Assembly (NCBI GenBank): GCA_964106645.2
Contig: OZ067049.1
From: Podarcis pityusensis
Lineage: Eukaryota
Direction: 5' to 3' (one strand)
DNA length: 64,000 nt
The notes under the pieces were generated by a model that saw only the letters and a program-made list of their open reading frames with translations, did not search any database and was not told the origin of the DNA. Within the stretch, counting starts at the first letter, position 1. Every line of letters begins with the position of its first letter. Positions 1,055 through 62,265 of this stretch are shown in pieces. Both the position numbers and the translations under genes were made by a program.

Positions 1055-2960
1055 GTAGGGCTCATCTTAGAAAAGGCTAAATATCAGAATTCCCTTAGTG
1101 ATGTACAAATTGTGCTAGCAGAATGGTTTGCACAAGAGAAGGCGCAGGACCCAGCATAATGCACAATCATTATTATCTTCCTTACCATAACACAGTAGGG
1201 GTTGCTCTAGCAGTCAGAGAATGTTGAATGTAGGCCAGAGTTTGCACATCCAAACCAGCAAACTGATTTGTAGTTTCCCTCCAAATCATAATTGCTCACC
1301 ATGATTTGCTTCTGCTTTGCAGTTTAGGTATAGGCTAAGCAGGAAGCAGTTCATTGTATCTGCCCATACAAGGGGAAGAAAGGACCAAATAACCAGAGCA
1401 TGGTTGTTTCCACACCTCCCAAACCATAGTTTGCAACATTACTTCTAAACTGGCTGACTTGTGTTGTGTTGATTGGAGCAGGGCTGCTATAAAAAGCTAA
1501 TAAATATTTAAGTCTGTGCATTAAAATCCTCCAGTACTGTTAATGAAGCACAGGAAATTCTGCTTCTGAGAAAGCTGTCATCTTGAGGAAATTGATTAGT
1601 TTAGTTGTAAATTGGAAAAGAATGCTGGAGGCCCAAAGGGCATGCAAAGACTAGAAAGACCTGCATAAAGAGGCAGGTTAAAAAAATTATTGGAATTAAA
1701 CTCTCCTTGGAAGAAATGTAATGCCTTTGGGTGCAATCCTCAGATGAGTTTCTCCAGATATGTTCTATTTATTTCAGTAGAATGTCTCTAGAGTAAGTGG
1801 TTTGAGGGCTGCAGTCTGTTCATCAAAAGGGTAGGCCTGGAGATATGGGGCAGGGTGGGGGAATGAAGCCAATTAAAAGTAAGTTTAAAGTTTTGGAGAG
1901 AGAAATAGAAGATAACTTGCATGTGGATAGAAATCAATAAGGAAAAGTGATTGTTGTGTGTGCATTGTGCAGAGCTCCAGCATTTTATAAAAAAAACATC
2001 ATGGGATTGAGAATTTTGCCCAGGTATGTCAAATTTTGCCAAGAGTCCTTTAAGCCATGGCTAAATTGCCGAGAATCTGTGCCATAACAGAATGCAGTAT
2101 GCAGAGTATCTGTTCCGGGTTTTCTTTTTCTCTAGAGAGATCAAACCAATCACACTAGGCTTCCTTTGCCATTGTTAGACAGGCTCTTCAAGCCTGGCAG
2201 CAGACCAAATAGAAGACAAGTGTTCATTCACCACATCTAGCTCCCGTTAGGTGGGAAGCAATACATCTCCAGCTATTTCCTCACCCCAAATGGTTCATAG
2301 CTTTCCCCCTGTCTTGAATATACATTGATCATGACAAATGGAAAGAACATTGAGAAATGGCTGCAATTTCTTTTTAGATAACCACTTAGGGCCAAATGTG
2401 TCATGGAAGATCTGAGGTACATAGAAGATCTCACCTTCTTTTGTTTTCACCAACAGCAGTCATGGGTGGAGGAAGCTGGGCTTTTATGAGTACAGGAAGC
2501 TCCCCGCTTCAAAAGAGGCCCCTCTAACTTACTGTGATGGTAATTGTGATGCCAACATATAAGAGAAGGACCCTTGCTGCTCGTCTCACACCTGAAGAGT
2601 GCTAATGTTAATATATGAATGGACATTCCCCCCATGCACTCAGTTGCTTTGCAGTGTGATCACTCAGACCATTAAGTCTCTAATTAACTATGGTTTTTGT
2701 TTCATCCAAAACAAGCAAAACAACCCAGATTATCAGCTTCAGAAGAAGCCAGAATATTAAACCATGATATATCCTGGCTTGTTCCAAAGCTGCTAACCAA
2801 GCTGATACATGATCATCTGAAGTCAACCACTGATACTTGCGTTCCTCACCAAATATGAGGTAAAATTGTGGAGACTGAGAACTGTTGGTACTTAACAAAA
2901 GTCATTTATTTACTACTTTAGATGCTCAGCAACCACTGGGTGTGAATGAATTTCCATATA

Positions 2961-3201
2961 CAGTGGTACCTCAAGTTACAAATGCCTCAGGTTTCAGACG
3001 CTTCAGGTTACAAACTCTGCTAACCTGGAAGAGTTACCTCGAGTTGAGAACTTTGCCCCAGAATGAGAACGGAAATCATGTGCTGGCAGTGCAGTGGCAG
3101 CAAGAGGCCCCATTAGCAAAAGCACACCTCTAATTAAGAACAGTTTCAGGTTAAGAACAGACCTCCAGAATGAATTAAGTTCGTAACTAGAGGTACCACG
3201 G
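2961..3201. mobile_element. Tc1/mariner-pogo type MITE
   Basis: TIRs CAGTGGTACCTC...GAGGTACCACGG flanked by TA; same family as 26850 and 34719 in opposite orientation. Confidence 0.85.
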
Positions 3202-3397
3202 TATTACTTCATAAGCAGTACTGTATATGCTTTTCTGACAAAAGAGGATTGCTTACTGCCAACAGTATGTGAGCACATTGAATCAAAAAGCAGCTGTTAC
3301 TGATGCAATTACATAACTGCTTCAGTGCTTATTTCTGATGTATAATAGTATATTAAAGTGGGTATTAACAACTGAAGTTATATAACTTTTGTTTCAG

Positions 3398-26747: not shown

Positions 26748-26849
26748 CTAAAAAGAGAACCGTGCATCTTTTATGAAGATGAAGAACAATTACTTCACAC
26801 ATGAAGCACAAATCACAGAGGTTGTTCACCATTTAGAGGAAGTACTATA

Positions 26850-27094
26850 CAGTGGTACCTCAGGGGTTAAGTACTTAATTCGTTCTGGAGGTCTGTTCTT
26901 AACCTGAAACTGTTCTTAACCTGAAGCACCACTTTAGCTAATGGGGCCTCCTGCTGCCGCCGCGCCGCTGGAGCACAATTTCTGTTCCCATCCTGAAGCA
27001 AAGTTCTTAACCTGAAGCAATTATTTCTGGGTTAGCGGAGTCTGTAACCTGAAGCGTATGTAACCTGAAGCATATGTAACCCCAGGTATCACTG
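26850..27094. mobile_element. Tc1/mariner-pogo MITE
   Basis: CAGTGGTACCT...AGGTATCACTG, TA TSD, internal TAACCTGAAGC repeats. Confidence 0.85.
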
Positions 27095-28474
27095 TACTAA
27101 TAAACCACTGTGGAACTAAATGGAAATAGCTTCACACAGAGGCAATATTTCAAGGCTCAAGGCCTACCGTATATGTAATATGAAGTTTACAGAACTAAAC
27201 TAACTCACCTTTTCAGAGAACTTAGGATCTGATGGGCAAAGCGGCTTTTAAGACACATTATGAAACAGTTCTAAAGTTATTCCCACTTTTAAAGGTTTGT
27301 TTTAGTTGACTGCATGAACTAAATCTAAAAATGGTGCTGCTAACCAGTCAAAAATTTAATTATTCTGGAAGATATGACATTACATGACATTTCAAAGCAG
27401 CTCATATGAGATTGCATGATTGACGCGGGCTCACCTTTCAGCCAGCGGTAGAATGCTTAGTGATTACGCCTCATTAATAGGTGTTTTTTTTATATATTAG
27501 AAACAATGATTGCAAAGCTTCCAATGCAGACAGGCAATTACAGTGACTGAATCTCTGACGAAGTACTGACTGTTCAGATGTAGTGGATGTGATATGTGGG
27601 TGTAATTTTCCCCAAGTTGTAAGCAGATTCCTGCAATAAAGTGGTAGGTCTTTTGACTGGATCCACTAGTCTCCTTGTCTCACAATCCTCTTTGTGTCTG
27701 GGTTGTTTTTTTTATGTAATCATCAAAAGACTTGACTTTAGAACACTTAAAAAAAAAAAATTGGGTAAAAGGTCTCTCCTCACCAATCCTTCCAACCCCT
27801 TTGCCAGGAAAAACAAACAAAAATATATTCTTCTTCTTCATAGTCTATCCTTAAAAGGAAATACAGCTCAAAGAGCACCACCGTTTATTTATTTAAATAT
27901 ATATTTACATACAGTTATCAGCTCACGGAGGCTACTCCTGTCTAGCAAACTCCTCCCTGCTCCTAGTTAAAATCTTCCTTCTCAAAGGGGGAAGTCAGCA
28001 AGGGGAATGACAGGGAAGGCTGGCCACAAATGGAGCTAAACCCATTTTTGAGCTGGACTCAGATTTTTACCAAAAATCAGATGGTTGAGTTTGAAATAGA
28101 GCAGATTTCTTTCCTAATTATGAATTCAAAATTCCCCCTCCTGCTGCCAACTAATGTTAGAGAGCAATTTGAGAAAAGCAGCAATCACCCAACGAATATT
28201 TTTTAAATGTCTTCCCCTAGTTAAGAACCTGGTACTGAACACCCCGTTGCCAATAAACATTAAGTCAAATCAATCTCCATCTTCTCAGAGCCTTAATGGA
28301 GGGGTGAGGAACCTGCAGCACTCCACTTGTTGTTGGGCTGTATCTTTCATCTGCCCTAGGCAGCACGGCCAATAGTCAGGGATGATGGAGTCAAAGTCCA
28401 GCAACAGTTGGAAGGTCACAGGTTTCCCACCCTGGACTTCATGAAGGATAATTCAAAATGGCCGCTCCATTTAC

Positions 28475-32796: not shown

Positions 32797-33148
32797 TGAA
32801 GGTAAAGGGACCCCTGACCATTAGGTCCAGTCATGGCCGACTCTGGGGTTGCGGCGCTCATCTCGCTTTATTGGCCGAGGGAGCCGGCGTACAGCTTCCG
32901 AGTCATGTGGCCAGCATGACTAAGCCGCTTCTGGCGAATGAGAACAGCGCACGGAAACACTGTTTACCTTCCCGCCGGAGCGGTACCTATTCATCTACTT
33001 GCACTTTGATGTGCTTTTGAACTGCTAGGTTGGCAGGAGCAGGGACCGAGCAACGGGAGCTCACCCCGTTGAGGGGATTCGAACCGCTGACCTTCTGATC
33101 AGCAAGCCCTAGACTCTGTGGTTTAACCCACAGCGCTACCCACGTCCC
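32797..33148 (-). mobile_element. Sauria SINE (left member of tandem pair)
   Basis: Full-length body with B box (GGTTCGAATCC on the minus strand). Confidence 0.9.
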
Positions 33149-33150
33149 TG

Positions 33151-33500
33151 TAAGGGTAAAGGGTAAAGGGACCCCTGACCATTAGGTCCAGTCGCAGATG
33201 ACTCTGGGGTTGCGGTGCTCATCTCACTTTACTGGCCTAGGGAGCCAGCGTACAGCTTCTGGGTCATGTGGCCAGCATGACTAAGTCGCTTCTGGCGAAC
33301 CACAGCAGCGCACGGAAACACCGTTTACCTTCCCACTTGTGCAGTATCTATTTATCTACTTGCACTTTGATGTGCTTTCGAACTGCTAGGTTGGCAAGAG
33401 CTGGAACCGAACAAATGGAGCTCACCCCATTGCGGGGATTCAAACCGCCGACCTTCTGATCGGCAAGCTCAAGGCTCTGTAGTTTAGACCACAGCGTCCC
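33151..33500 (-). mobile_element. Sauria SINE (right member of tandem pair)
   Basis: Near full-length body directly abutting the left copy. Confidence 0.9.
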
Positions 33501-34546: not shown

Positions 34547-34718
34547 CAGTACATTAGATACACTGCGCCCCTCCCAACAGGACAACATTTCCCACTGCAT
34601 ATTAAGCAGACCAGCAGCTTTGCAGAGTATTTCCCTCTATACTAGAGAAAGGATATTCCACATGGGGCTCACTGTGGAACTTGTCTGGTTATGAAACTGA
34701 ATACTTTTTTTCCAGGCA

Positions 34719-34960
34719 CAGTGGTACCTCTGGTTATGTACTTAATTCGTTCCAGAGGTCCGTTCTTAACCTGAAACTGTTCTTAACCTGAAGCACCACT
34801 TTAGCTAATGGGGCCTCCCACTGCAGCTGCACCACCGCCACGCGATTGCTGTTCTCATCCTGAAGCAAAGTTCTTAACCTGAGGTACTATTTCTGGGTTA
34901 GCGGAGTCTGTAACCTGAAGTGTATGTAACCTGAAGCGTATGTAACGCAAGGTACCACTG
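34719..34960. mobile_element. Tc1/mariner-pogo MITE
   Basis: CAGTGGTACCTC...AAGGTACCACTG; closely similar to 26850. Confidence 0.85.
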
Positions 34961-35593
34961 TACTGCATTAAGTAGTGATGAAGCAGGTTTTCTGGATGAT
35001 ATGGGAAATACTTTCCTAGGACAATTCTACAGCTGAACAGCTCCTGCCAAGATGAACTATTTCACTAAAAAATAAAATAAAATCAAAAACCTACAGTCAA
35101 AATCCAGCATGATATGAGGCAGACTTAACCCATTGACTCTGCACTGGATTCTGGCCAGTTTGCGAGAAGTTAGTTGCAAAAGCACAAAATGTGTTATGGT
35201 ACATATTCCCATGAGGAAGTTGATCCAAAAATATGCTGTACGCTTTTCCCCACAGTAACACTTTTGATAGACTCACCTCTGACCCACTCCCGCCTGCAAA
35301 AAAAAGTCTAACAGAAACAGCCAATTGCAACTACATTTTTATTACAGCCCACTATGTTTGTGAAATATTCAGTTATGTAATATGTTGCTTTCACTCCTCA
35401 ATCCATCATAAGGCCTTGGGAAAGTTGAGGTTTCAGAAATGTAATCTCAGAAGATGATAAATAAATCTGACATTAACAAAAGTTCAGGTCACTTTTCTAT
35501 CAGAAATAGAGGATTTCTTATTTTTTAAAAAAGCATTAGCTTACTTTGAAAAATTAAAGAGGATATTTCAGGTCCAAAAAAATCTGCATATTA

Positions 35594-37343
35594 CCGTATT
35601 TTTCGCTCTATAGGACGCACTTTTTCCCCTCCAAAAATGAAGGGGAAATGTGTGTGTGTCCTATGGAGCGAATGCAGGTTCCTTGGCTTCGCAGCGACGC
35701 GCCTGTCCTGGAAGCCGGAGGAGGAACAGAAGGGTCTCCTTCTGTTCCTTCTCCAGCTTCGCTGAAGGGGCACTGCACCTTCTCCCTCTCTGCGCAGCAC
35801 CTCTCCTGTGAAGGAGAGGCGCTGTGCAGAGAGAGAGAGGGCGTAGCGCCCCTTGAGCGACGCACCTGTCATGCGAAGCCGGAGGAGGAACAGAAGGGAC
35901 TCCTTCTGTTCCTCCTCCCACTTCGCAGCGACGCACCTATCCAGCGAAGCCCGAGGAGGAACAGAAGGGTCTCCTTCTGTTCCTTCTCCAGCTTCGCTGA
36001 AGGGGCGCTGCGCCTTCTCCCTCTCTGCGCAGCGCCTCTCCTGTGAAGGAGAGGCGCTGCGCAGAGAGAGAGAGAAGGCGCAGCGCCCCTTGAGCAACGC
36101 GCCTATCAAGCGAAGCCGGGGGAGGAACAGAAGGGTCTCCTGTTCCTCCTCCCGCTTGGCAGTGATGCGCCTGTCCTGGAAGCCGGAGGAGGAACAGAAG
36201 GGTCTCCTTCTGTTCCTTCTGCAGCTTCGCTGAAGGGCGCTGTGCCTTCTCCATCTCTGCGCAGCGCCTCTCCTGTGAAGGAGAGGTGCTGTGCAGAGAG
36301 AGAGAAGGCGTAGCGCCCCTTGAGCGATGCGCCTGTCATGAGAAGCTGGAGGAGGAACAGAAGGGACTCCTCCCGCTTCGCAGCGACGCGAAGCCCGAGG
36401 AGGAACAGAAGGGTCTCCTTCTGTTCCTTCTCCAGCTTCGCTGAAGGGGCGCTGCGCCTTCTCTCTCTCTCTCTGCGCAGCGCCTCTCCTTCATAGGAGA
36501 GGCGCTGCGCAGAGAGGGAGAAGGCGCAGTGCCCCTTGAGCAACGCGCCTACCAAGCGAAGCCGGAGGAGGAACAGAAGGGTCTCCTGTTCCTCCTCCCG
36601 CTTGGCAGCGACGCGCCTTTCCTGGAAGCCGGAGAAGGAACAGAAGGGTCTTCTTCTGTTCCTTCTCCAGCTTCGCTGAAGGGCGCTGCGCCTTCTCCCT
36701 CTCTGCGCAGCACCTCTCCTGTGAAGGAGAGGCGCTGCGCAGAGAGAGAGAAGGCGCAGCGCCCCATGAGCAACGCGCCTATCACGCGAAGCCAGAGGAG
36801 GAACAGAAGGGTCTCCTTCTGTTCCTTCTCCAGCTTCGCTGAAGGGCGCTGCGCCTTCTCCATCTCTACGCAGCACCTCTCCTGTGAAGGAGAGGCGCTG
36901 CGCAGAGAGAGAGAAGGCATAGCGCCCCTTGAGCGACGCGCCTTTCATGCGAAGCTGGAGGAGGAACAGAAGGGTCTTCTTCTGTTCCTTCTCCAGCTTC
37001 GCTGAAGGGGCGCTGCGCCCTCTCCCTCTCTGCGCAGCGCCTCTTCTGTGAAGGAGGGGCGCTGCACAGAGAGAAGGCGCAGTGCCCCTTCAGCGATGCG
37101 TCTGTCCTGGCTTCTGCTTTAGCCCTGCGCAGCCTCTTTGGGCAGGGGGAGCCTTCATCCCGCTGCCCTGAGGAGGCTTGGCGCAGTTACCCCAGAAGCC
37201 AGAACAGCCGCACGGTATCCCAGAAGCCAGATCCCTCTTGCTGTTCTGGCTTCTGGGGTTCATAATAATTTTTTCTTGTTTTCCGCCTCCCATAACTAGG
37301 TGCGCCCTATGGTCCGGTGCGCCCTATGGTGCGAAAAATACGG
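35594..37343. mobile_element. Non-autonomous Tc1/mariner-pogo element carrying an internal hairpin array
   Basis: TIRs CCGTATTTTTCGC.CTATAGG.CGCAC / GTGCGCCCTATGGTGCGAAAAATACGG, TA TSD at 35592-35593 and 37344-37345. Confidence 0.88.
35690..37110. repeat. GC-rich composite tandem repeat built from palindromic units
   Basis: About 11 copies of hairpin A (GAAGCCGGAGGAGGAACAGAAGG-gtct-CCTTCTGTTCCTTCTCCAGCTTC) and 7 of hairpin B (about 94 nt, loop TGTGAA). Confidence 0.92.
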
Positions 37344-37396
37344 TATACCTCTGTTCAGGCATGTTACACGAGTTCATTTTTAGCAGGGAATACTGA

Positions 37397-37554
37397 ATAC
37401 TTGCTTGAACGTAATCATTTTCCAGTATACTCAAGGGATACTTTCTGATTGCAGTATGTTAAACAGGTTTCCTTGATACTTGCTTGAACGTAATCATTTT
37501 CCAGTATACTCAAGGGATACTTTCTGACTGCAGTATGTTAAACAGGTTTCCTTG
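37397..37554. repeat. 79-bp direct tandem duplication
   Basis: Copies start at 37397 and 37476 with one mismatch. Confidence 0.92.
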
Positions 37555-37660: not shown

Positions 37661-37725
37661 CTCATCCAAACAATTCACACGGACATTCTTGCTGCCAAGC
37701 AGTCGTGCAGCTTCTTCAGGGCTTC
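37661..37725 (-). CDS. ANKMY2: ANKMY2 exon 2
   Basis: ccttag|GA...GAG|gtaaaa; SPEEAARLLGSKNVRVNCLDE. Confidence 0.93.
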
Positions 37726-40154: not shown

Positions 40155-40659
40155 TCCATTTAATATTATACAACATTCACATCATCTTTATCCACTATCC
40201 TGCCCTGGCTCTTAGAGCCTATAGACTTCCTTCCCTCCCACCTCATGGCTTTCAAAATTAACCTTTATATCATTGCCATTTATACGTTTCCCAATTCTAA
40301 CTACACTCATTACAGAATGACTCAAAAGTTAAATAAATATAGAAAGAGAGAAAATTTCTCATTGCAAGTCTTCAGAAGACTTTTATTATTATTATTGCTT
40401 ATTTTGCATGAAAATATGCACGATCTGATAAAAAAGCAGGCGGCGTGCAACAGTCGCAGGGAGCAGCGCCCAGTCAAAGCACAGGAGAGGCGGCGAGGAA
40501 GCAAAAACCTAGGGGAAAAGCCCCTTCCAGAAGCAACCTCCTTGCGCATTAGCACGGGCCCGACGCGCAAGGCCCGGTCGCATAGACTCACATGCAGCCG
40601 ACACGCGTCACTCCGCCTCTCGGCTTGGCCTGGAGCCAGACTTCCCTTGTCCGCCTTAC

Positions 40660-40726
40660 CTTTCCCAATCACTCCCAGCAACTCCTTTTCCTCCTCGCTC
40701 AAGTCCCCTCTCTTCAGAGACGCCAT
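40660..40726 (-). CDS. ANKMY2: ANKMY2 exon 1, coding part
   Basis: gctATGG strong Kozak; MASLKRGDLSEEEKELLGVIGK G|gtaagg; the ten exons sum to 1371 nt = 456 aa plus stop. Confidence 0.93.
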
Positions 40727-41289
40727 AGCTCGCTGGCTGCCTTATTTCTTCCTCTCTCAGCCAGCCACGCGCATGCACCTTCCCCGCCGCCGCCGCCCTC
40801 CTCCTCCTCCTCTTTCCACTGAGGAGAAAAATGAGGGCAGCCCCCGCTGCTCCGCCAGAGCAGAAGGAACCTCGGCGCGCTCCCCCCGCCCCACGCCGCG
40901 CTTCGGCCAGCGGATATCCCCCCCTCTACGCCCGCGCCAGGATCCCCGCCGCTCGCGACATTGTAACTTCCTCTCCCGGAGCTGTCGTGAGAAACAAGGG
41001 GAGGGGGGGCTAAACCACTGGCTCAAAAGACGGGGGGGTGTATAGAATAAGTAAACAAAGCGACGCTCGCTCCCAGTTCGCATCTCAGCCTGGGAGGGGG
41101 AGCGAGGGAGTCGGCTTGGACTGTGCCTAAAGAGGAACGCGTGTGGACAGGAGAGTCCCCAACTGGACATGCACAATTTCCTTTATTTTTATTTCCACCC
41201 CCCCACTGGTAAAATGGTGCGGCCGGGCGGGGAAGGAGGCGGGGCCTGAGCCGGCGCTCTGCGTGTGTGTGTGTGTGTGTTAATGTGTC

Positions 41290-41398
41290 CGTCCTTCACT
41301 TCTCCATTGTCTGTGGCTGCTGCTTGTGGCGGAGGCGCTGCTGCCGCTGTTGTCTCTTTGCTTCTTCTCCTTAGACAAGAGCCACTTCCCCCAGAGAG
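41290..41398 (+). other. BZW2: Putative BZW2 non-coding exon 1 (5'UTR); start approximate
   Basis: Pyrimidine-rich initiator-like CTTCACTTCTCCATTGTCTG downstream of GC boxes, (GCT)n-rich leader, donor GAG|gtaaaa at 41399. Confidence 0.6.
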
Positions 41399-41825
41399 GT
41401 AAAAGCCTGGCAGTGCGGGGAGAGGGGCAGGCGCCGAGGTCGGGCGGGTGGGAAAGAGGGTGCGGGTCCAGGAGGAAGGGAGACAAAAGCTGGGGAGTGT
41501 CCGCGAAATGCACAAAAGAGGCAGAAGCGCGCCTGCACGACCCTCTCCTGCAAAAGGCAGGGGGAGAGAGGGGCGCTGCTCCTCAATTGCCTGCTGCTGC
41601 TGACGCCGCCGCCGGAAAAGCAGGGAGTTCAGCAGCCTGGGAGGGTCCGCTTTCCTCTTTCCGCGGTGAACTTCGAGGTTGCGTGTCTTCCTTTCGCAAG
41701 GTGACACGAGACAACTCGGGGGTCGGTGTTGCGGGTGGGGGGAAGCTGTCATTTATATGGGGTAGGGGGAGAAAAACAACAAGCCGGGTGAATTGAGCGC
41801 CTCTAGGAGACGGGGATGCTGGAAG

Positions 41826-41970
41826 GATAGCTCAGTCCGTGGAGCACGAGACCCTTCAGCTTAGGGTTGTGGGTTCGAATCCCGCGTTGGGCAAAAGATT
41901 CCTGCATTGCAGTTTGGGGTGCCGCGGTTGGGCTAGATGACCCTCGTGGTCCCTATGATTCTATCATTCT
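41826..41970 (+). mobile_element. SINE with tRNA-like head and CR1-type tail
   Basis: GATAGCTCAG A box, GGTTCGAATCC B box, then AGATTCCTGCATTGCAG...CTAGATGACCC...(ATTCT) tail shared with the CR1 end at about 32740. Confidence 0.78.
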
Positions 41971-43206
41971 GGCGGAGAATTGCTTGCTGGTTGCTTCGGC
42001 CGGTGCTCGGCAGTGGCTGCTGCATGCGAAGAAACGTGTTGTGTATGGGAGGGTTCAGACGTATCGCCTCCTCCTTGCCTGCATCCTTGGCGGGAGTCCG
42101 TTCTGCTGGGTGCAAACAGGCGGCAGAAGGAAGGAGTTGCCTTTGGTCCCTTATAGAGCCTTTCTGGCTTTGGTGAGGTGGTGGTGGTGGGGTGGCAGCA
42201 GACCCACTGGGCGCTGGCTGCGGTGGGGAGGACGCGGTGGTTGCTTCGCTCCGGAGCCGCGCAACAAATCTGTGTGTGCAAGGAGAAGGGGACGGTGCTG
42301 CCTTGTGCGCAGTTTTATTACCGAGGCGCCATTGGCACTCCAGAGACCTTGACCTGCGTGGTGCCACCAGCCCGCCTGGCTGCATGTGGGGAGCCATCCC
42401 GGTGTCAGGTTGAGACTGCAATCCCATACCCATTTTCCGGGGAGTAAGCTCCATGAAACTGAATGGGACTTGCTTTTGGTGCATAGGATGGCGCTGGAAA
42501 CGTTTCCCTTAAAAAAGAGAGAGAGACTCTTATTAAATCTGGACAGCGATGTCTCAATTTTCAGGCTTTTAAAAGGAAGGTGTGCTTCAAAAGTTGGCTG
42601 AGATTCATTATTTAGTCATCCTAGTGGTTACAGGTGTTTTGTAAGCCTCTTGGAGGAAGGAAAAGTCTAGACATCGCTCAGCTGTTTACTTTCTGTTTAC
42701 GCATTAAATTGGAGATCTGAGTTCTTTGAGGGAGTTCAGATTTTCTTCTTCCACTTAAAAAAAAGGGGGGGGGAGGGAAGGGAGTTGCGTAAAAGCAGGA
42801 AATATCATTTTAAATAATTGTTTTATCCGCTGGATACAAGTCACTAGTATTGCTTAGCCCCGTGGATTTCTTGGAGATTAGTTTTTTGGATTGGGTAGTT
42901 TTGCAGTCCGCAGCGTAAATGAATTACAGTACATTGAATTTATAAGTTAAGAGCCTTTTGCTGCTCTTTTTTCAGTTGAGGATTAAGAGAATTTCTGCTT
43001 GGCATGCTTGAGTTGTAAATTAATACACCTCCTGCATAATACTATTTTTGGTAGGCAAAGTGATTTAAATAACATTTAGATCTTGAACTAGAGAAAAACT
43101 TGTGTTAAATGAAGTCTGATCCTAAACATGCTTACTGAGCAAGAGGTCCAGTTGTGCTCCATAGGGATTTAGCCCCTGCTAAGAGTAATTCAATTGGAAT
43201 AATCAT

Positions 43207-61529: not shown

Positions 61530-62158
61530 GTAGGTTTGATCACTTCATTTTGTTGTTTATTGCAGTTTATTGAAGACTTTGCACAGTGCTGCCTGCTGTG
61601 TTTTGTTTCCCCTGCTTAGCAAATCAGTATTTAACATTAAAGAGTAGATGGACTGAATCAGTTGACTTGCTGGTATATATTGAGCTCCCTGTGAACAAAA
61701 GTGTAATACTTATTCACCATACTGGAAGACTTTTCTCTAGCTGTATTCATGTCACCTATATTGTCTTACTAGAAAACTTTGCTTTTTAAGAAATCAACAT
61801 CAAACCATGACTAATAACCCTGGCTTGTTTTAATAAACCAGCTTTAATGCTAGCCACAGTTCCAGATTTTGAGATAACAGCAAGCCATGGTTAGTTGAAA
61901 ATGGAAGTCCTTCTGATCTCATCTTCATAGACCTTATCAGTGGAGAAAACCAGCTTGTGGTTTGTGTACATAACAATAACCAAACCATTGTGATGTATAA
62001 CTTTATTTATATATGAAGGACTCTCCCATTACACAGAAGAAACATGATTCTGATATACCCTTCTACCACAACAGGCCAATCCAGTGAAATATAACCAGCT
62101 TAACTATTTTGTATGTTGCTCTCTGGGACCAACACTGTAACATGCCAAGCTCATTCAT

Positions 62159-62265
62159 TGCAATAGATTGCCCCATTGCTCAGTTTGCAATACGTGCCCC
62201 ATTGCTCAGTTTGTAATATATTGCCCCATTGCTCAGTTTGCAATACATGCCCCATTGCTCAATTT
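62159..62265. repeat. 26-27 bp minisatellite, about 4 copies
   Basis: Unit TGCCCCATTGCTCAGTTTGCAATAC. Confidence 0.9.

Follow-up and report, generated by a model that had tools for sequence, protein, structure and literature searches.

A hairpin-array transposon in intron 2 of a presumed ANKMY2 gene of the lizard Podarcis pityusensis: probable origin of the array in DNA copying errors

Tandem arrays inside non-autonomous transposons are known in frogs, bivalves, and flies. miDNA4-Xt (a Tc1/mariner MITE of Xenopus tropicalis), Xmix/Xstir, and FEDoR of Rana are non-autonomous TIR elements of the Tc1/mariner-pogo (ITm) group with a variable internal tandem array, most copies of miDNA4-type elements being short and a minority having many units (PMC9659126, PMC12054243). 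The pearl-like tandem-repeat MITE DTC84 of Donax trunculus holds ordered unit variants inside conserved flanks, and the palindrome present in each of its units was proposed to be a hotspot of length change (PMC3879986). As to transposon ends, the Tc2-related families TcMar-N4, N6, and N13 of Anolis share a TA duplication and TIRs shorter than 30 bp starting with C(C/T)GTA (PMC3014272, table 2), and the TC2/Passer branch of pogo elements combines a TA duplication with a similar TIR start (PMC9976928, PMC7386202, PMC7325037). Finally, the palindromic Harbinger repeat of X. tropicalis exemplifies a self-folding DNA transposon, which needs no second copy to form long dsRNA and undergoes hyper-editing (PMC5625713).

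Here, we analyze an element found in a 64-kb stretch of Podarcis pityusensis DNA (hereafter the window), whose tandem array lies between conserved arms, as in miDNA4 and DTC84, and which is best read as a palindromic variant of elements of this type. Like DTC84, it arranges unit variants in order between conserved flanks; DTC84, however, has another shell and a palindrome of 12 nt per unit, while here nearly the whole unit is stem (PMC3879986, in excerpt). miDNA4 elements are AT-rich (63%) and 300–600 bp long, as against 1.75 kb and 61% GC in the present case (PMC9659126, PMC12054243), and they differ from it further by the lack of long nested palindromic units in two-level order with one unit flipped, as well as of a dominant short form seemingly devoid of units. 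The TIRs of the Anolis families diverge from ours past the first bases, and the excerpted text on these families mentions no array (PMC3014272). The Xenopus Harbinger repeat consists of one palindrome of ~200 bp, belongs to another superfamily, and has its editing shown, whereas the duplex considered here is predicted only (PMC5625713). A literature search returned no description of this lizard element, which Repbase and Dfam, lying outside that search, may contain; the Tc1/mariner fragment in Zv817 of Zootoca (PMC10058329) may or may not belong to the same family. We consider it probable that a Tc2/pogo-like non-autonomous transposon was recently inserted into intron 2 of ANKMY2 and that its hairpin array was produced by errors of DNA copying (slippage and template switching) and not by selection on RNA.

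Ends, class, and host gene of the element

The element occupies 1,750 bp (35594–37343), contains no gene, and is delimited by TIRs with TA on both sides, in full agreement with the TA-flanked shell that a preliminary description of this DNA had proposed. The left TA target-site duplication (35592–35593) is the point beyond which contigs of two related organisms, B and C (see below), match no further, and the right one (37344–37345) was read directly as TA. The left TIR of 27 bp (35594–35620, plus strand) begins with CCGTATTTTTCG and is identical in 24 of 27 positions to the right TIR of the same length (37317–37343, minus strand), the latter being overlapped by a subterminal 17-nt direct repeat in two copies (37299–37332, plus strand, repeat family D10). 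The 14-mer composed of TA and the TIR start is found in the window at exactly two sites, 35592 (plus) and 37345 (minus), against a chance mean of 0.12, two sites being reached in none of 100 shuffles. TIRs shorter than 30 bp that start with CCGTA conform to the CYGTA ends of the Tc2/Passer branch of pogo elements, so that the element is likely a non-autonomous transposon of Tc2/pogo type, a family label taken from the ends alone. Its size is above the strict MITE range (about 100–600 bp), into which an inferred short form of ~250 bp would fit. Among the 23 stop-to-stop frames of 60–327 aa, which by eye are the repeat translated, no transposase ORF was seen, the longest one (327 aa) being the repeat itself; the transposase driving the element is likely made elsewhere. 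The rest of the window (outside 35500–37400) gave only short chance matches to the element (best E=0.33). The TIR pattern was found in neither metagenome nor viral contigs (0 in both), and the core of hairpin B was likewise absent from metagenome contigs (0).

The element lies in intron 2 (37660–30746) of a gene transcribed from the minus strand, 317 nt away from the donor of exon 2, and is hence a part of the pre-mRNA, as had been supposed. The 65-nt exon 2 (37661–37725, minus strand) joins in frame with coding exon 1 (40660–40726, delimited by eye) and with exon 3 (from 30745). The minus-strand exons encode ankyrin repeats (Pfam Ank, E=5.6e-12) and MYND-like cysteine stretches; a search of Pfam with the 48-aa MYND-like piece returned DZR only, below the cut-off, and with the 22 aa of exon 2 nothing. 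We take the host gene to be ANKMY2 and its head-to-head neighbor to be a BZW2-like gene. Between the ANKMY2-like (minus) and BZW2-like (plus) genes, a CpG-rich bidirectional promoter region extends over 40440–42400, ~3 kb from the element. A 17-nt micro-exon at 35278–35294 (minus strand), suggested by good look-alikes of acceptor and donor, is probably no exon, since it has two substitutions in organism B and a 1-nt deletion in organism C, and since the reading frame already passes intact from exon 2 to exon 3 when these 17 nt are left out.

Other repeats were also observed in the surroundings. A 79-bp tandem duplication with 99% identity (37397–37554) is situated in intron 2, 52 bp past the right end of the element. 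An interspersed repeat of ~361 bp forms two head-to-tail copies (87%) at 32801–33496, recurs near positions 736, 11690, 22364, 43849, and 57824, and resembles, as we assume, a SINE of Squam1/Sauria type. Another TA-flanked element of ~250 bp with CAGTGGTACC ends and internal repeats of 16–17 bp occurs three times (34718–34964, 26849–27098, and 2959–3210), one copy being 630 bp from the hairpin-array element; it is presumably a Tigger-like MITE. Near a BZW2-like exon, 62158–62265 contains a tandem repeat of 53 bp in two copies (26 bp in four).

Organization of the hairpin array

Being cut at unit starts, the array of 1.4 kb enclosed by the TIRs resolves into 18 hairpins, 11 A and 7 B, exactly in the order A-B-A'-A-B-A'-A-B-A'-A-B-A'-A-B-A-B-A-B that the preliminary description had given, and TRF reports periods of 230 (x5.0), 446 (x2.5), 163 (x2.9), and 71 (x2.0). 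The base unit consists of a linker of ~22 nt and hairpin A (49 nt), while hairpin B (96–104 nt) stands between A and the next linker and is missing in A'. B is a palindrome of palindromes: a single 10-mer occurs in it four times in alternating orientation, which enables either arm to fold on itself. Some measures given earlier required adjustment: A is indeed a hairpin, but in place of arms of ~23 bp it has stems of 19–22 bp, of which only 12 bp are left in the A' at 36342 owing to its deletion; the arms of ~44 bp around TGTGAA ascribed to B correspond to stems of 41–46 bp with a 4-nt loop, except for the B at 36439, which has an inverted core with the loop TTCATA; and the higher-order period of 445–470 bp is real (468 and 446 bp), but only two full copies follow it, giving way rightward to an A-B period of 163 bp.

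The array-bearing subfamily is entered through 35679–35710 (plus strand), as delimited by unit cutting and relatives' contigs, where an entry segment is followed by the first linker of ~22 nt. Higher-order block 1 (35711–36178, defined by TRF and alignment) comprises A (35711), B1 (35760), A' (35875), A (35946), B2 (35995), and A' (36112, with a 3-nt deletion). In block 2, the alignment assigns to the first half, from 36179, A (36179), B3 (36228), and A' (36342, with a 12-nt deletion followed by an 11-nt deletion in the linker), and to the second half, up to 36624, A (36390), B4 (36439), and A' (36558, with a 3-nt deletion). Three 163-bp A-B units defined by TRF and unit cutting complete the array at 36625–37095: A (36625), B5 (36674), A (36788), B6 (36837), A (36951), and B7 (37000). 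The higher-order copies result from the alternation of two block types. Aligned over 444 positions, block 1 (468 bp) and block 2 (36179–36624, 446 bp) differ by 20 substitutions, 12 of them of CpG type. Lesions of the array thus include deletions of 3, 11, and 12 nt, changes in the length of GA tracts, and an inversion in place in B4. An apparent likeness between the linker and an inner TIR motif was dropped as a probable consequence of CpG decay.

The additional hairpins noticed earlier in the right arm are present beyond the array as C and D. Hairpin C (37124–37186, family D6) is degenerate, has the motif CTGCGCAG in common with B, and spans with its right arm the junction of the short form, which continues into the left arm of hairpin D (37189–37259, family D11, with an internal 16-nt duplication). 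The CpG richness reported before is confirmed as well: GC content is 60.6% and CpG o/e equals 0.70, compared to 0.33 for the whole window. A 441-nt piece has an MFE of -341.6 kcal/mol (z = -25), and none of 100 shuffles was as good.

The most peculiar unit is B4 (36439–36542), whose core is inverted in place, that is, the loop and the asymmetric CT/GA tract are swapped while the outer ends stay the same. Its mean alignment score is 134.2 in forward and 156.7 in flipped orientation, the other six B units scoring better forward. Since B2, the higher-order partner of B4, is unflipped, the inversion followed the higher-order duplication. One contig of organism B switches strand at symmetric positions of hairpin B (35776->35838), the behavior expected of a flipped copy. 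Template switching is known to produce loop inversions (PMC8794818); recombination from arm to arm would lead to an identical outcome. In-place loop inversion and arm matching, both known for template-switch mutations, fit B4 and the arm-matching changes of A units, though the described events are short and belong to RNA genes (PMC8794818), while here at least about 60 nt were inverted inside a transposon array.

Copies in relatives, age of the insertion, and origin of the array

Comparison with related organisms covered 34970–35875 and relied on assembled contigs, as all 24 listed runs are of this kind: X1, X3, and X4 represent DNA of organisms A, B, and C, respectively, and X17 is guessed to be RNA of a more distant organism. 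X1 had the highest word content among the 24 runs listed (0.51), and contig details come from the 32 pieces listed out of about 20,400 and the 24 loose ends listed out of 405. Over 35590–35682, the summed contig depth amounts to 0.57–1.9 million against 9.9–22.6 in the flank, a ratio that is not to be read as copy number, and contigs enter from unrelated flanks before 35590–35592 in 333 (A), at least 234 (B), and 314 (C) cases. It is this depth at the element start, together with hundreds of unrelated flanks, that indicates a large interspersed family. The left arm (35621–35678, plus strand) is common to a very abundant short form, as evidenced by contig depth and by 66, 54, and 63 contigs exiting at 35678 in the three DNA runs, and the exit consensus of organism A matches 37179–37208 in 26 of 30 letters by eye. 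The dominant form of the family thereby appears to be ~250 bp long and free of the array; AGG is present on both sides of its junction (35676–35678 and 37174–37176). The A1 signal in summed contig depth is ~1% of the TIR signal. At 35690, 17 contigs of organism A and 18 of organism B leave the shared left arm for another interior with an agreement of 0.92–0.93; this second long interior is another subfamily. In the more distant organism, contigs matching the TIR were numerous and those matching A/B units few, and the intronic flank was represented by one piece at depth 3.4, such contigs being uninformative on expression and editing.

In organisms B and C, 21–38 contigs match variant sites of hairpin B, and tandem joints are represented by one contig each: 35855->35693 (163 back), 35762->35711 (via the linker), and 35838->35711. 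Judging from these joints, A/B array units exist at other loci as well. A joint 35612->35784 seen in all three DNA runs was left unused, its short side having only 22 letters. At the locus under study, the match of organism B (record 17) runs over 34970–35593 and then continues for 322 letters without entering the TIR, and that of organism C (record 27) over 35107–35593 and then for 746 letters, again without entering it, so that the site is apparently empty in two of the three DNA runs, judged from where the match stops. Since these taxa nevertheless have A/B junctions elsewhere, the array appears to travel with a subfamily of the element. Many insertion sites, apparently empty sites in two relatives, and A/B junctions elsewhere bear out the earlier claim of a mobile array in a DNA-transposon shell: the element is real, well defined, and mobile. 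The term nascent satellite, also suggested earlier, is applicable only if weakened to mean an array that is short and dispersed, as expansion past the TIRs has left no sign here.

Record 1 of organism A enters the TIR by 22 letters, the bridging rule being 31 letters. Its flank differs from the window in 2 of 646 positions, and that of organism B in 8 of 624 with a gap in addition; organisms B and C have three flank alleles in common versus the window and organism A. The simplest reading of the contigs is a single insertion on the branch leading to the window and organism A, although excision or lineage sorting could result in a similar picture of filled and empty sites. Private variants of B1 were met in no contig of organism A among the matches listed, and none there has the window's base at 35839; its copy at this site may have a different interior, or this part may have dropped out. 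One could therefore imagine, as a local event, that a short MITE was inserted first and that the array was later copied in from another copy by gap repair or conversion, or mostly grew in place. The presence of the TIR in organism A combined with the missing B1 variants, as well as the capability of Anolis non-autonomous elements to recombine (PMC3014272, in excerpt), speak in its favor; we nevertheless hold it to be unlikely, as the left arm is unlike the dominant short form at 35625, 35628 onward, and 35657, and hairpin C is intact across the short-form junction. Dating of the array leads to the same assessment: outside CpG sites, the two alternating block types differ in 9 of 190 columns, whereas the flanks of the window and organism B differ in 8 of 624 (Fisher p=0.007), and since the former exceeds the divergence between filled and apparently empty flanks, the core of the array, given similar mutation rates, was likely built before insertion. 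The mutation rate of hairpin DNA may, however, be higher than that of the flank. For the higher-order copies, the difference (8/375 versus 8/624, p=0.31) does not demonstrate an age above that of the insertion, and their last duplication may have occurred before or after it, a point that in-place growth can claim for itself.

For the preferred reading, insertion of a transposon that carried a hairpin array, the following course of events may be proposed. A long non-autonomous ancestor would have gained nested palindromes through template switching, as suggested by the four alternating 10-mer copies in B. Replication stalled at hairpins, or repair of gaps after excision, could then have duplicated linker-A and A-B units and later the two-block unit, the same hairpin structures giving rise to short deletions and to the arm-to-arm flip of B4. 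A deletion between the AGG triplets at 35676–35678 and 37174–37176 would have generated the MITE of ~250 bp, later the dominant form, unless the change went in the reverse direction. An array-bearing copy would subsequently have jumped into ANKMY2 intron 2 on the branch common with organism A, to be methylated in the germ line and to decay irrespective of RNA pairing. In B units, 16 of 140 CpG-site cells differ from the majority compared to 13 of 553 others (the cells are not independent), and C-to-T and G-to-A changes are about equally frequent; this symmetry is what methylation in the germ line would produce if neither strand were under selection.

Predicted RNA duplexes and the meaning of the locus

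The preliminary description interpreted the array as a polycistronic miRNA/siRNA cassette, a reading that finds little support in the sequence. The transcribed strand is not preferred, as the MFE summed over 18 hairpins equals -978.0 kcal/mol for the plus and -967.3 kcal/mol for the pre-mRNA strand, and compensatory changes were detected in none of 45 consensus pairs (0/45 changed on both sides), a comparison of low power with its seven close B units. Stems predicted on the pre-mRNA strand comprise 12–21 pairs in A and 41–46 in B, none of the 18 falling within 33–39 nt, and loops of intact units have 4 nt, while the Drosha optimum is a stem of 33–39 nt with enrichment of loops of 8–16 (PMC5340965, in excerpt). 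TGTG is on the plus strand in 6/7 B loops, and UGUG is thus antisense to ANKMY2. No match to Rfam was obtained at the gathering threshold. Made1 elements spread human miR-548/579, and by this precedent Drosha and Dicer might cut B from the ANKMY2 intron, from antisense transcripts, or from transcripts of other loci, the element spreading a functional cluster. The intronic B stems of 41–46 bp, the plus-strand TGTG of their loops, and a family large enough for recruitment of some copy agree with that, as does human MIR579, whose 44-nt stem gets processed and which indicates that long stems are allowed (PMC5340965). Given, however, the unfavorable stems and loops, the antisense position of the motif, the absence of strand bias, compensation, and Rfam matches, the adjacency of B to A, which leaves one side without a single-stranded flank, and an insertion apparently absent from two close relatives, we regard a functional cassette as very improbable; low-level processing of B hairpins may still take place.

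Editing by ADAR is, on the predicted structures, the better bet. About 81% of the element is predicted to be paired on folding, and the helices predicted for the pre-mRNA strand run without interruption over 41, 35, and 32 bp, long duplexes of the sort found in ADAR hyper-edited repeats. In the frog, no repeats are edited more than the palindromic Harbinger ones, and 122,793 hyper-edited sites were reported for lizard brain (PMC5625713). From this predicted folding it is plausible that the intronic RNA is highly double-stranded and incidentally edited as a by-product; editing, if present, requires no function. Splice-like motifs were also noted on the minus strand within 35707–37323, where the CT tracts of B hairpins terminate in CAG, and exonisation of the element is conceivable. 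The insertion might even have been retained owing to a changed output of ANKMY2: its duplex might recruit ADAR, or might sequester or provide splice sites at a distance of 317 nt from the donor of exon 2, or the element might act as a methylated, CpG-rich sequence 3 kb away from the promoter of ANKMY2/BZW2. The extent of predicted pairing, with helices reaching 41 bp, the splice-like motifs of the pre-mRNA strand (22 resembling acceptors and 3 resembling donors in a crude, uncontrolled scan), and the editing known in frog and lizard are compatible with this idea, which we find hardly credible all the same: among 171 paired adenosines, 73 have the 5′ G that ADAR disfavors and just 1 has 5′ U (PMC5625713), the element is young and decaying, and editing is expected without any benefit.

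Rather than a new RNA system, of which present evidence shows none, the locus offers an amniote case of an array-bearing transposon with units that are almost pure palindrome, a flip in place, and an array seemingly older than its insertion. As closely related organisms appear to differ in having or lacking the insertion, a single locus allows tests of how repeats evolve by template switching and of how editing and splicing respond when an intron abruptly acquires a 1.4-kb duplex. As a broader and admittedly unlikely conjecture, a lizard lineage of Tc2/pogo type with a self-remodelling palindrome cassette, which flips, duplicates, and deletes, may still be seeding introns with ready-made arrays of long dsRNA, so that tens to hundreds of loci would be species-variable ADAR substrates and, in some copies, sources of small RNAs or splice changes. 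If this were true, presence/absence alleles such as that of ANKMY2 would serve as natural experiments in which the seeding of satellites and of hairpin RNA genes by transposons could be followed.
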